The position numbers and the translations under genes are program-made. A stretch of DNA of 21,528 bases, taken from the IMG/VR virus record IMGVR_UViG_2526164668_000015. One strand, given 5' to 3'. Each line of letters opens with the position of its first letter. Positions within the stretch are counted from its first letter, which is position 1. Positions 3,544 to 21,528 of the stretch are shown one piece after another. The notes beneath the pieces were generated by a model. It was not told the origin of the DNA, ran no database searches, and saw only the letters and a list, made by a program, of their open reading frames with translations. The stretch is from a virus. Taxonomy: Duplodnaviria > Heunggongvirae > Uroviricota > Caudoviricetes.

Positions 3544-3685
3544 AAAGAAGATTTCCAATAATCAGAACAAGTCGGCTCCTGTTTAGTTACGAGCGACATT
3601 GCTCCGTGTATTCACTCGTTGGAATGAATACACAGCGCTGTGTTTATTCTGTTGTTTGCGTGAAAATGAAATCCGCCTGAGCGGG

Positions 3686-11657: not shown

Positions 11658-11700
11658 CTGAGTCATTTTATTATTTTATTGCAACTTTTAATCTTTTATA

Positions 11701-11747
11701 GTGCGAAATAAATGGAGCTGGCATTCATTTCGCACTTTATGTTTTTG
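11701..11747. terminator. hairpin plus T-tract between convergent genes (candidate bidirectional terminator)
   Basis: GTGCGAAAT (11701-11709) pairs with ATTTCGCAC (11727-11735) as a 9-bp stem around a 17-nt loop, followed by TTTATGTTTTTG. It lies between the Q remnant (+) and the convergent outer-membrane gene (-). Confidence 0.45.
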
Positions 11748-16581: not shown

Positions 16582-17435
16582 CTAAGCGAGATTATGGTTT
16601 TCAAATTGTTCCGGGCTGAGACCGCCACAGGCACTGTGACGACGCCAGCGATTGTAATCACACTCGATATAATTAAACACCGTTGCCCGCATTATTTCCC
16701 GGCTGCTAAAGCGTTCCCCGTGGATACATTCCACCTTCAGCGAATGAAAGAAGCTTTCCACACAGGCATTGTATAACAGTAGCCTTTCGCACTCATACTG
16801 CCACGCAGGTTGTGTCGCTTCAGCAGCGCCTGATAATCCCCTGAACAGTATTGACCACCACGGTCCGTATGAACAATGACGCTTTCCGGGCGTCTTCTCC
16901 GCCACAACGCCATTTGCAGTGCATCACAGGCCAGTTGTGCTGTCATTCGCGGTGACATCGACCAGCCAATAACGGCGCGTGACCACAGGTCGATGACTAC
17001 TGCGAGATACAACCAGCCCTCATCGGTACGCAAGTACGTGATGTCACCCGCCCACTTCTGGTTCGGGCCGCTGGCGCTGAAGTCCTGCTCCAGCAGATTC
17101 TCCAATACGGGCAGGCCATGTGCACGGTAGCTGACCGGGCTGAACTTCCGGCTGGCTTTCGCCCGCAGCCCCTGACGACGCAGGCTGGCGGCAATGGTTT
17201 TAATATTGAACTCCGGCAGTTCGTCAGCAAGGCGGGGAGCACCGTATCGCTGCTTTGCCTCAAAGAATGCCTTATGGACAGCGGCATCGCAGGTGAGCCG
17301 AAACTGTTGGCGCAGGCTCATCTGGTGACGACGCCTGAGCCAGACATACCAGCCGCTGCGGGCAACCCGAAGTACACGACACATCGCTTTGATGCTGAAC
17401 TCTGCCCGATGATTTTCGATGAAGACATACTTCAT
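16582..17435 (-). pseudogene. IS3-family transposase OrfB (InsF-like DDE) with an internal frameshift
   Basis: InsF-like sequence [30 protein letters not shown]...[30 protein letters not shown] runs to about 16775 and then stops ([14 protein letters not shown]-stop). The InsF C-terminus ([19 protein letters not shown]...[14 protein letters not shown]) continues in another frame at 16582-16773. This is consistent with a 1-nt deletion near TGTTATACAATGCC, where IS3 as recalled has TGTTATGACAATGCC. Confidence 0.8.
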
Positions 17436-17731
17436 TTCAGGCGCTTCGCGAAGTATGTCGCGGCCTTTTGGAGGATGGCCAGTTCCTCAGCCTGCTCCGC
17501 CAGTTGTCGTTTAAGGCGGACATTTTCAGCGGCCAGTTCGCTTTCGCGCTCTGACGAACTCATTTGTTGCTGCTGTTTACTGCGCCAGGCATAAAGCTGG
17601 GATTCATACAGGCTGAGTTCACGGGCTGCGGCGGCCACACCGATGCGTTCAGCGAGTTTCAGGGCTTCGTTACGAAATTCAGGCGTATGTTGTTTACGGG
17701 GCTTCTTGCTGATTGATACTGGTTTTGTCAT
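17432..17731 (-). CDS. IS3-family transposase OrfA (InsE-like, HTH)
   Basis: 99-aa [102 protein letters not shown]. Confidence 0.9.
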
Positions 17732-18049
17732 GAGTCACCTCTGGTTGAGAGTTTACTCACTTAGTCCTGTGTCCACTATTGGTGGGTAAGATCATAAATA
17801 CCCATTCAATACGCTGTATGGCCGCTGAAAGAACATTTTCTTCCGCTATGACTTTTTGTGTACCTCTCATACATAGCCCTGATAAAGCATTCTGATTTAA
17901 CTTTCTGTCAAATACGAGGCAACCAGTCCGTAATCAACCACACAACAAACCAGAACCCCATCATCAGAATCAAATACTCCATGATGACTGAAATACTTAT
18001 TTTCATATCATTACCGCACCCTGATAATATTCAGTACAGAATTATCCCA

Positions 18050-18847
18050 TTACTGATACTCAATACTCACTGGCAGGGACACATTCCAGCGTTCTGTTTT
18101 ATCTCCCCACAGATGTAATTCGCCGGTGTCAGCAATAGTCCGGGCACCATAAACACCTTCAATCTGGCGAAGAGCAGTATCGCTGAAATGGCTTACGCCT
18201 GTCTCTGAACTTACTGACATCGTCGGCAACCACCCCGGACCTTCACCATCAAACATTGACTGCAGTAATCCGGGAATCTGCTCTGTGTTCAGAACATGGG
18301 ACTTATCAGGCAGACCGTTTCCCCCTACATCATCATATATACTGGTATAAGTAACCTGACCGTTACTTACATGCCGCATAAGTCCTGCCGCCTGCATACG
18401 AAACGTAAAATGACCAATCCGATGGCTATCTTCCCCCGTAACAGGCAATGTAACATCTGCAACTCCTGGTGTGGCCCACACCAGAGAAAAATCCTCAATA
18501 CCTTTTCCGAATATAATTCGGGGAGCCAGCCCCTCACGTCCGGCAGGTGTGGTAAGAACTGTTTTTCCCAGTACAAGATTCATGGCAGGCAAAGAAACAG
18601 GAACCACCGTATCTCCACTACGTGAAACCGGAGAATGTTTGACATTCAGGTTTGACTTCCCTTCTCCTATCTTCCACACCCAGGGATTACGGGTACTGGT
18701 TACTGGACCGCCCAGTTTAAGTTCACCACTGAAATCCTGACCGGGTGTATTCCAGGCCAGAACACTGAATGGAAAAAAACAAACAATCAGAAATAACAAA
18801 ACAGAATTCTTCACATTTTTCTCCACTATTGTTTCCCTGCCATTCAT
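18050..18847 (-). CDS. secreted protein, paralog C of a three-member family (pilus/adhesin-like?)
   Basis: ATG at 18847 overlaps the stop of the upstream gene (ATGA). Signal peptide [31 protein letters not shown], motif [12 protein letters not shown] shared with the upstream paralogs, and a C-terminal beta-strand ...[11 protein letters not shown]. Confidence 0.7.
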
Positions 18848-19620
18848 TGCACAGTAACCGTAACATTCAGTTTTGCCTGCCACTGAGCAGGTGTCCCTTC
18901 TGCCGGAAGGTGTAATTCAAAATCAGACACAGAAGATGCATAAGCAGCGGCAAGATTTTTGACTCTGCCATCCGCAAGAATCCCCTGACTGATAACCTGC
19001 CCGTTATCCACTGCGCTCATTCCACCACCAAATTTCTGATTCATCAGCAACAATGAAGATAAACGGTTCTTCAGTTCTTGAGGTAAACTACCGGACTGAA
19101 CATTCGTCACACTCTGTCCACTAACCAGTGACATCCCCGCAGGTACCGATACGCCATCCTCCTGGACACCAGTACTGACAGCCATCCCCTGATCAAGGGT
19201 AAAATAAAGTTGCCCTGTCACCTGACCATTTTCAGGATCACTTACCGGGACAGAAGCACGAAAATGTTGTGCAGTGGCACTGTTTCCGTCTGTTACCGTA
19301 AAAGGCTGACCATTACTACTGAACGTGATAAAAGGCGTAAAACCAGGACCACCGCGCTCTGCCACTTCGAACAGATGCCCCTCAAGAAATGGTAATGAAC
19401 CTTTATCATGCAAATCAAAAATAAGCTGCCCATTCTCTGTTAGGGCATCAGCTGTATCCACGGCCCAAGTCTGTCCGGATGAACCTATCTGCCAAGTCCA
19501 TTTAGGTGCCTCATCAGTAACAAAACCATGAAACTGGATTTCACCACCATCAAGGCGCTCAGCATATAATTTCATTGAACATAAAAGAACACATCCAAAA
19601 AGAAAAAAGAATAACAACAA
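18844..19620 (-). CDS. secreted protein, paralog B
   Basis: ORF beginning with TTG at 19620 in the ORF track ([19 protein letters not shown]|ERLDGG...). It contains [13 protein letters not shown] and ends ...[10 protein letters not shown]. An ATG at 19634 in another frame upstream of a T-run suggests either a TTG start or a homopolymer indel in the signal-peptide region. Confidence 0.65.
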
Positions 19621-19686
19621 CGAACTAAATTCATGCTATTTACTCCTCATCCTTTAAAACAGAAGTCGGATGTATCGTTTTTGGAA

Positions 19687-19719
19687 TAACACTCTCACTA
19701 TAAAACAGTGAGAGTGTTA
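19687..19719. promoter_or_regulatory. perfect 13-bp stem-loop between paralog A and paralog B genes
   Basis: TAACACTCTCACT-ataaaac-AGTGAGAGTGTTA: 13-bp perfect inverted repeat with a 7-nt loop, in the 137-bp intergenic gap. No U-tract follows on the coding (minus) strand. Confidence 0.5.
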
Positions 19720-19758
19720 CAAATAATAAATGGTTTCTACTTATTTAAGTTCTGTGCA

Positions 19759-20622
19759 TTAATTGTATGCAACAGTAACATTAAGTGGAATTGACCAATT
19801 GGTTGTATGAGTGACTTTCTGTGTAAAGGTTAAATCAATTTTACTTCCGTTGACTAAACCGAACCCCATACCTGTAGCTGCAGTTGACATTTTTTCAATA
19901 TTAAATCTACTGTTCGCCTCATTTGGGGTTAAAGATTGCATCCATCCCTGATCAGCCCAGTTAGTAACTTGACCTACTCGTCCTTGGAGCTCAGAAACCA
20001 AATCAGACATTCCTAATTGGTTAAGAATATCTTCGGCTGTATCAATATCTGTAGCCTGGTGATTTCCACCAACAAGTCCCGCATATAACGAAGTAGAAAC
20101 ATTGTAATTATCAGAAACGACCAATTTAATACCAGTATCACCACTATCTGGAGTACCATACATCACACCTGCTACACGCGCATCTGTAATTTTTGCCGTA
20201 CCAACAGCTTGGCTATCAGCGTAAACTGGCACACTAAAATCAAACCCTCCATTGTTATTCCAGTTAGTACGAGAGATTTGAATACCATCACCACCACTAA
20301 CAACTACACTCGGCATAACACCTTTAGAATAACTATCAGCAGAATAAATCCCCTTAGTTTTTATAGCCAGAACAGGAATAGCTTCCTGAACAGGCAAAGA
20401 TAATTCGTTACCATTTACCAAGTCGGTACCATTATTAGCGAAATTAGTATAACCACTCCCTGTGGCAACCAGCCATACAGGAGTATCATCTACAGTAATT
20501 GTACCTCCAATAGAAACGGATCCTCCTGCAGAATTTTCCTCCCAAGCACCTAAACCAGCCATAGCAGAACCGGATACCGCAGTAGAGGCAACTACCGCAA
20601 GTGCAATCAACGTCTTTTTCAT
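19759..20622 (-). CDS. secreted protein, paralog A (candidate major structural subunit)
   Basis: 287-aa ORF with signal peptide MKKTLIALAVVASTAVSGSAMA, motif TPVWLVATGSG and C-terminal strand ...SIPLNVTVAYN. The mature protein has no Cys. It has its own AT-rich upstream region and is followed by a strong hairpin. Confidence 0.75.
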   Translation of the reverse strand: MKKTLIALAVVASTAVSGSAMAGLGAWEENSAGGSVSIGGTITVDDTPVWLVATGSGYTNFANNGTDLVNGNELSLPVQEAIPVLAIKTKGIYSADSYSKGVMPSVVVSGGDGIQISRTNWNNNGGFDFSVPVYADSQAVGTAKITDARVAGVMYGTPDSGDTGIKLVVSDNYNVSTSLYAGLVGGNHQATDIDTAEDILNQLGMSDLVSELQGRVGQVTNWADQGWMQSLTPNEANSRFNIEKMSTAATGMGFGLVNGSKIDLTFTQKVTHTTNWSIPLNVTVAYN

Positions 20623-20843
20623 AAGTTTAATTCCTTCCAGTATATATATTTTATATAGCTGGTAACCCCGTCACAGAATTACCGCAAACCCATCCCTGAA
20701 CAATATATATAAATGTTGCCACATGTATGAATAGTGCAAAACAGAATGGGTTTACGTTATTCCCGTAAAAGCCAACCCTTTACCGCGAAATTATTCAGCG
20801 GACTTCAGTGAATTTATAAAACACAGAATGCAAATACTGATTT

Positions 20844-21335
20844 TTAATTAACGCCCTCCACCTGTAATGCAATCTGAATATTTCCGCGATAATTCACGGG
20901 AATTTCCAGGTCAGCCGGCACATCTGAACGTAACTCAACCTGTTTTTGTGCGTCCGGCACCGTTATCAGAACATCCTCGCCCTGCTGACTGGCATTCAGT
21001 ACAGCCTTTTGCCCATCCACCACCAGGGACGTTTTCAGGGTGATTCTGGCTTCCTGGTTATCCGGTAATACCTGCTTTACTGTGATATAAGCCATACCAC
21101 CGGATGCCGGACGGACTTCTGCATCACGAACCCGTAACTGTACCGGCAATGCATCATCACTCCGGTACAGTACCGGGTCAGTGGGGGTCCGGGTGACTTT
21201 CACCACGCTGTTCCCCACCACCTGACCATTCACCACCCCCAGATATTGCGTTTTCTCACTGTATTCATTTGCATGAACCCCCTGAAAACCGAATGCAGTA
21301 AACAGCAGGCCAGCTATCATCATTTTCTTTTTCAT
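20844..21335 (-). CDS. secreted 163-aa protein of unknown function
   Basis: Signal peptide MKKKMMIAGLLFTAFGFQGVHA|NEYSEK. It lies 45 nt downstream of a partial upstream gene on the same strand. Confidence 0.7.
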   Translation of the reverse strand: MKKKMMIAGLLFTAFGFQGVHANEYSEKTQYLGVVNGQVVGNSVVKVTRTPTDPVLYRSDDALPVQLRVRDAEVRPASGGMAYITVKQVLPDNQEARITLKTSLVVDGQKAVLNASQQGEDVLITVPDAQKQVELRSDVPADLEIPVNYRGNIQIALQVEGVN

Positions 21336-21377
21336 TTAACTCCCCTTCTGTTCTGTACTCCGGTACGGCGGGATTGA

Positions 21378-21528
21378 TTACGCTGCACTTTTCTGAGGTT
21401 GGACATTTTCATCAACGTTCGTCCCTGCCGTGGATTTCTTCTGATTAATCGTCCAGGTTTTCAGGTCACCATAATCATCCAGGGATTCCACTTTCACCAC
21501 ATTTCCCTTCACCTGCACTTCATCTCCT
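21378..21528 (-). CDS. 3' end of an upstream gene of the same operon (5' portion outside the window)
   Basis: Open frame on the minus strand running off the window edge, ending ...GDEVQVKGNVVKVESLDDYGDLKTWTINQKKSTAGTNVDENVQPQKSAA with stop at 21380-21378. Confidence 0.5.
   Translation of the reverse strand, partial: GDEVQVKGNVVKVESLDDYGDLKTWTINQKKSTAGTNVDENVQPQKSAA

Follow-up and report, generated by a model that had tools for sequence, protein, structure and literature searches.

The locus lies within a fimbrial operon whose genes are all carried on the minus strand of the window (the whole 21,528-nt stretch of DNA that was analysed), in the order DUF5462/FaeF, a 287-aa Fimbrial_K88 protein, FaeH-like and FaeI-like. 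These genes are referred to below as F, G, H and I, and their positions are collected in Table 1. Pfam places the 287-aa protein and the two proteins encoded after it in Fimbrial_K88, in agreement with their description as paralogs in an earlier reading made from the DNA letters (the sequence-only reading), and a search of NCBIfam gave no matches for the four fimbrial proteins. The 287-aa protein is 31% identical to FaeG of K88 and is named 'F4 family fimbrial subunit' in some sources; from gene order and homology it is presumed to be the major subunit. A 3.7-kb segment corresponds to sequence in four IncF plasmids of E. coli from cattle or farms, with a single-base indel in a T run as the sole difference, and the neighbouring genes in the matching plasmids are annotated faeD, faeE and faeH. 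The G-H spacer measures 124 nt up to the conserved SD and ATG start at 19634. The gap of 137 bp to the next paralog given by the sequence-only reading is reproduced only when counting from a TTG at 19620 (~137–138 nt). The H-I gap is 29 nt. A hairpin lies in the G-H spacer, starting 39 nt past the TAA of the G gene and ending 52 nt short of the ATG of the FaeH-like gene. Beyond the operon, an IS3-family element (16582–17731) lies ~320 nt downstream of the FaeI-like gene and its transposase orfB is seemingly split (ORFs 16737–17435 and 16582–16905). A faeJ homologue is absent between the FaeI-like gene and this element, while true K88 and several relatives have faeJ.

Table 1. Positions of the fimbrial genes and of the parts of the G-H spacer hairpin in the window.
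Feature	Coordinates	Strand	Basis or remarks
FaeF-position gene (DUF5462), upstream of G gene	20844..21335	-	Pfam
287-aa FaeG-position gene	19759..20622	-	Pfam Fimbrial_K88; TAA stop 19759–19761
Full RNA stem-loop	19686..19720	-	16 pairs, -21.5 kcal/mol
mRNA 5' arm UAACACUCUCACU	19707..19719	-	12/13 same in p12A2; single C>U giving U.G pair
Loop GUUUUAU	19700..19706	-	3/7 conserved; 5 nt in p12A2
mRNA 3' arm AGUGAGAGUGUUA	19687..19699	-	13/13 same in p12A2
Spacer from hairpin to FaeH-like start	19635..19686	-	unstructured, poorly conserved; SD GAGGAG 19643–19648; ATG 19632–19634
FaeH-like minor-subunit gene, next cistron	18844..19634	-	Pfam Fimbrial_K88
FaeI-like minor-subunit gene, last fimbrial gene before IS3-family element	18050..18814	-	Pfam Fimbrial_K88

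The hairpin is built on a perfect inverted repeat with 13-nt arms at 19687–19699 (TAACACTCTCACT) and 19707–19719 (AGTGAGAGTGTTA), which are 100% complementary and separated by 7 nt, exactly as first described. It is the longest perfect hairpin of the 21.5-kb window and the sole perfect stem of at least 13 bp with a loop of 3–10 nt. Perfect stems of at least 13 bp are expected by chance at 0.003 per 21.5-kb window (analytic estimate for loops of 3–10 nt), and 13 bp was attained in one of 200 dinucleotide-preserving shuffles of the window. When the minus-strand RNA is folded, the structure extends to 35 nt, the 13 Watson-Crick pairs being supplemented by a closing G.U pair and by two pairs derived from the loop (one G.U and one U-A) so that a UUU loop remains; the stem is accordingly 13–16 bp and the loop 3–7 nt. 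The stem is 38% G+C, with G-C in five of the 13 core pairs. The folding energy of the hairpin corresponds to z = -9 against the shuffled spacer, and that of the 155-nt region around it to z = -4.55. The hairpin is real and non-random. On the coding strand it is followed by the tail UUCCAAAAAC, which contains two U's (in a longer reading, UUCCAAAAACG), such that a U-tract is absent, as the sequence-only reading had noted; a terminator consensus scan of 17700–21528 likewise returned no terminator-like site, and a promoter consensus scan found no promoter-like site near the hairpin. A search of 19300–20100 against Rfam at a permissive E-value produced only sub-threshold chance matches and none to any sRNA, the best being rnk_leader at 25.6 bits, where the gathering score is 50.

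The closest diverged operon lies on plasmid p12A2 (L002), where the same operon has a diverged G cassette, and its comparison with the window is the most informative one. Identity is 96.8% in the F gene and 94.6% in the F-G spacer, falls to 66.8% in the G coding sequence (60% at the amino-acid level) and to 48.7% between the G stop codon and the hairpin, is 35.6% between the hairpin and the SD, and returns to 93% in the H gene body. Within this trough the two hairpin arms are together identical at 25 of 26 positions, against 36–49% in the flanking spacer, and thus form a sharply bounded conserved island where divergence of the locus is greatest. The sole change in the arms is a C>U on the coding strand, which keeps a U.G pair in the mRNA, would produce an A.C mismatch in RNA of the other strand, and disrupts the dyad symmetry of the DNA. 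Retention of the arms together with freedom in the length of the loop is the pattern expected from selection on the stem. The p12A2 hairpin has 15 pairs and, on the coding strand, receives a terminator-like call with the tail TATATTTC (also given as UUUAUAUUUCU); the sequence 3' of it reads UAUAUUUCU.

The G coding sequence and the G-H spacer, to ~25 nt before the H start, form the sole strongly diverged segment between the two plasmids (window 19759–20622 compared with L002 4967–5830), the remaining operon being 93–97% identical. This arrangement is consistent with cassette replacement or with diversifying selection on the adhesin. The F-G spacer (20623–20843, minus strand, 221 nt) is kept in p12A2 right beside the 67%-identical G gene. 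It contains an AT-rich inverted repeat (20641–20650 / 20702–20711) and, on the minus strand, a pair of sigma-70-like hexamers (20731–20702), and its structure is modest (z = -2.2). An internal promoter may lie here, or else, as in papBA, an element for 5' processing or stabilisation of the G cistron.

The exact hairpin was found in four of 5426 complete E. coli genomes, in one copy each and always within this operon, and the variant form in two more (p12A2 and pDEC9B-1); no other plasmid locations were found for the sequence. These are the only two sequence variants of the hairpin in the databases searched, and a double compensatory change is not among them. Alignment scans of metagenome and genome contigs recovered G-like genes that were distant only (28–46% identity), and in the variants of the 90% cluster the spacer was identical throughout.

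We compared the spacer with those of 16 further F4-like operons from plasmids of E. coli, E. albertii, Shigella and Salmonella, including true K88 (L008) and the pESI Klf type of Salmonella Infantis (L011). Each G-H spacer examined contains one to three strong hairpins that start 10–75 nt past the G stop codon. The hairpin sequences of the other lineages are unrelated to one another and their architectures vary, comprising single perfect stems, long stems with inner hairpins and sets of two or three tandem hairpins; homology to the other lineages resumes only ~25 nt before the H start. The minimum folding energy over 70 nt is nevertheless below that of shuffled sequences in all 17 of the G-H spacers, with z from -2.0 to -7.7 and mostly between -4 and -6 (K88, z = -5.7 with a hairpin of -28.5 kcal/mol; pESI type, z = -4.8). 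Control F-G spacers of similar length from the same operons are mostly unstructured, with z > -1.3 in 8 of 12. Further lineages, from metagenomes and from Edwardsiella hoshinae, have G-H spacers that are likewise structured. On these comparisons a stem-loop after the major-subunit gene is a feature conserved across the operon family, despite its location in a hypervariable cassette; within the Klf type, KlfG is highly diverse and the remaining Klf proteins are conserved (PMC5560535). One metagenome contig (L020, OJJY01000534.1, 1501–3223) has two tandem G-like genes 19 nt apart with no hairpin between them.

When tails were read directly from the sequences, the main helix was found to be followed by a U-rich tail in about half of the lineages: ATTTTT in L003, CTTTTTTT in L006, ATTTTAAT in L009, TTCTTTTC in L010, TCCTTTATTTT in L011, TTTATTTT in L012, TTTTCAGT in L014 and TTTTTTT in L024. 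Lineages without such a tail include the window, K88 itself, L004, L007 and L018. The tails were read in this way because the terminator scan is uninformative on the other lineages, most of whose loops are long or branched and fall outside its 3–8 nt loop rule, and an automated count of tails on the outermost domain is noisy because the tails are absorbed by weak outer pairs.

Several features assign the element to the coding-strand RNA, namely the substitution to a U.G pair in p12A2, the coding-strand U-tails of the relatives and the position after the stop codon. The U-tails and the terminator-like p12A2 copy also tie this class of element to the 3' ends of coding-strand transcripts. Folding energies are of less help. 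The sense strand forms the more stable local structure in 15 of 17 G-H spacers, and after correction with shuffled sequences a residual sense/antisense difference of ~ -1.6 kcal/mol is left (Wilcoxon p = 0.02, n = 13 independent lineages), which is negligible for the window itself. The energy asymmetry was therefore rejected as proof of an RNA-level element, since it mostly reflects the G+T-rich composition of the sense strand.

Taken together, these comparisons suggest that the hairpin is probably a cis-acting mRNA stem-loop which protects the 3' end of the major-subunit message, weakly attenuates read-through into the genes beyond it, or does both. A stable stem-loop stands directly 3' of the cistron whose product is presumed to be required in excess and before the minor-subunit genes, and structure is kept at the same position in the orthologous operons (17/17, z <= -2). 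The preference of the sequence-only reading for an RNA-level stabiliser, processing site or attenuator over a simple terminator thus gains support from comparison: the hairpin comes after the gene in the FaeG position of an F4/K88-like operon, its arms form a conserved island in which the sole substitution preserves coding-strand pairing, a hairpin of unrelated sequence occurs at the same position in every related operon examined, and the U-tract is absent.

Transcription would proceed from the upstream fae-like genes through G and into the minor-subunit genes H and I, and the hairpin would form in the mRNA far enough past the G stop codon to be clear of the area that a terminating ribosome covers. 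Cleavage by an endonuclease, or termination that is Rho-dependent or inefficient, would first act downstream, after which the hairpin would stop 3'-to-5' exonucleases (PNPase, RNase II) and the G segment would outlive the H-I segment. The hairpin may also pause RNA polymerase or end a minority of transcripts, an effect expected to be weak without a U-tract. The net result would be more major-subunit mRNA than minor-subunit mRNA. We infer three elements of this scheme from sequence: inclusion of the hairpin in the transcribed operon mRNA, accumulation of 3' ends at its base, and how strongly stoichiometry would be affected.

The general mechanism is known from other systems. In malEFG, differential decay is brought about by a 3' protective structure that halts PNPase and RNase II after endonucleolytic cleavage downstream (PMC5927463). 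The malE-malF hairpin resembles ours in being a stable stem-loop in the spacer directly after a cistron needed in excess, and differs in that the mal element is a REP sequence with hundreds of copies per genome whereas the hairpin described here is single-copy and confined to this operon type. A functional parallel is offered by papBA, from the P pili of uropathogenic E. coli, also a chaperone-usher operon in which the major-subunit segment carries a 3' hairpin. There, the papA mRNA segment is commoner than its neighbours and is guarded by structures at both ends, the one at the 3' end being RNase-resistant (PMC5927463). The two systems differ in several respects, however: the 3' element of pap is described as a terminator while the hairpin here has no U-tract, pap has an RNase E cleavage site upstream of papA and a 5' hairpin, and there is no sequence similarity, the proteins here being of the Fimbrial_K88 type as opposed to PapA-type pilins. 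The pap and CFA/I fimbrial operons are both listed under selective RNA processing and stabilisation in PMC4423207. CFA/I is an ETEC plasmid fimbrial operon, and differential RNA decay is stated there to control the relative expression of its subunits (PMC4423207, citing Jordi et al. 1993); its fimbriae are of another class. Finally, E. coli 3' ends that arise from Rho-dependent termination typically carry stem-loops without U-tracts (PMC13613805). The nearest counterparts by position are the G-H hairpins of true K88/F4 and of the other F4-like operons (Klf of pESI; plasmids of E. coli, Shigella and Salmonella), which share the orthologous site and strong structure with the window hairpin, but are unrelated to it in sequence, vary in architecture and, in about half of them, have a U-rich tail.

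The principal competitor to a protective stem-loop is a leaky intrinsic (Rho-independent) terminator or attenuator, in which the hairpin would stop some polymerases and termination, as opposed to decay, would set the ratio of G to H and I. Position and strand suit a terminator of the G cistron, the window hairpin shares with canonical intrinsic terminators a stem-loop with a 3–7 nt loop on the coding strand downstream of a stop codon, the orthologous p12A2 hairpin satisfies a simple terminator consensus on that strand, and T-rich tails are present in L003, L006, L012 and L024. The window copy departs from the canonical form, which requires a U-tract of 7–9 nt right after a GC-rich hairpin (PMC3993855): its tail has only two U's, its stem is low in G+C, and the scan of the surrounding region made no call. 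On account of the missing U-tract and the 38% G+C of the stem, we rank a stabiliser above a leaky terminator and regard the latter as rather unlikely for the window copy. The two roles are compatible and not cleanly separable, and the class of element clearly spans both. Conservation of the arm sequence itself would equally be expected of a site recognised by its sequence, and two further explanations draw on it. By analogy with FimR2, the hairpin might be the core of a small RNA of ~35–40 nt that is freed from the G 3'UTR by RNase E and acts in trans or binds a specific RNA-binding protein. FimR2, a 35-nt sRNA, is annotated in the K-12 fimA-fimI spacer and so likewise follows a major fimbrial subunit gene and precedes the next fimbrial gene; the extended hairpin is of the same length, and a small RNA would explain conservation of the arm sequence beyond what pairing demands. 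FimR2 acts in trans, is cut from the fimAICDFGH mRNA by RNase E and depends on its stem-loop to remain stable (PMC9723502). The two differ in that FimR2 combines a single-stranded part with a CsrA-binding stem-loop, while the loop here has no CsrA-type GGA motif and the conserved island is fully base-paired, leaving no single-stranded seed. The hairpin has no sequence similarity to FimR2, or sequence or Rfam similarity to any sRNA, the fimA-fimI spacer has an ordinary folding energy (z = 0.03), and the unrelated sequences of the sister-lineage hairpins fit a generic structural role. We consider a small RNA very doubtful; were it correct, each antigenic type of G cassette would have a private small RNA of its own.

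The other explanation that draws on the arm sequence places the function in the DNA, as the site of a dimeric regulator or recombinase or as a patch of identity for crossover of the G cassette, and thereby includes the protein-binding palindrome allowed for in the sequence-only reading. A perfect 13-bp palindrome whose arms are preserved between operons with 67%-identical G genes, in the hypervariable cassette of these operons (PMC5560535), could be taken in this sense. A dimeric DNA-binding site is nonetheless awkward because it would need a fixed spacing of half-sites, which here is 7 nt in one variant and 5 nt in the other, and the sole substitution spoils DNA symmetry and keeps RNA pairing. 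Moreover, the hairpins at the same place in other lineages are unrelated in sequence, the site is present in one copy per plasmid and is otherwise absent from the 5426 E. coli genomes, no promoter-like site is nearby, it is situated within the variable segment and not at its edge, and its ends misfit integron attC core motifs by eye. A role at the DNA level is highly improbable on this evidence. That the repeat is a chance or neutral one without function is scarcely credible: shuffling does yield a stem of at least 13 bp once in 200 windows, but the expected number is far below one, the arms stand out as an island against p12A2, and equivalent hairpins are present in every one of the related operons as against mostly none in the control spacers. 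Two more specific candidates were rejected. The hairpin is not a repeated element of the REP, BIME or MITE type, being single-copy and operon-specific, nor is it an integron attC-like site, as its ends (TTGTAAC ... GTTATTC) misfit RYYYAAC/GTTRRRY by eye and nothing similar is found in other lineages. An RNase III processing site is unlikely because the maximum of 16 pairs, G.U included, is below substrate length. RNase III substrates consist of about two helical turns (~20 bp or more) of near-continuous double-stranded RNA.

A cis-acting mRNA stem-loop after the G gene would be a local instance of a design principle shared by chaperone-usher fimbrial operons, in which a stem-loop placed after the gene that is needed in hundreds of copies per fibre uncouples the mRNA level of that gene from those of the minor subunits. 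The hairpin is in this respect an uncharacterised example of a well-known device and opens no new mechanism. What is new is comparative: the hypervariable G cassette of F4/K88-like operons always brings a hairpin with it, whereas the sequence of that hairpin and its U-tail vary. The literature searched contained no characterisation of any G-H hairpin of F4-like operons, and nothing on a faeG-faeH hairpin, on terminators of K88 or K99 or on fae transcript levels. The observation has relevance for FaeG-type vaccine antigens and expression cassettes, which should retain their native 3' hairpin, and for the annotation of these plasmids.

The FaeH-like gene that follows the hairpin differs in the window from all the other copies compared (four complete plasmids and four draft assemblies). 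In the region encoding the signal peptide the window has a run of six T's (19603–19608) where the other copies have seven. From the ATG at 19634, the longer run (T7) gives an ORF of 263 aa that begins with a normal signal peptide, whereas with the shorter one (T6) the frame ends after 20 codons and the body of the gene is out of frame. Either the T6 run represents a true frameshift allele, or the homopolymer was misread when the source of the window was sequenced. A true frameshift at the T homopolymer would be compatible with on/off switching of the minor subunit as a possible consequence, and control of subunit stoichiometry is perhaps moot in the window copy because its FaeH-like gene is frameshifted.

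Annotation of this gene is uneven across the public records. In L001 (NZ_CP010120.1, 9045–9776), FaeH is annotated from an internal ATG as a protein of 243 aa without a signal peptide, and this internal start is used even in T7 records with the open 263-aa ORF. Gene callers accordingly differ at otherwise identical loci, giving 243 or 263 aa (L027/L029 versus L028/L030).

Other inverted repeats were seen in the window. The coding sequence of the FaeF-position (DUF5462) gene holds a 22-nt inverted repeat that is 82% complementary (21125–21183), and protective mRNA structures within coding regions are known in E. coli operons. Outside the fimbrial operon, imperfect inverted repeats are present at 11697–11739 (18 nt, 89%, 7-nt loop) and at 3596–3643 (22 nt, 77%, 4-nt loop).
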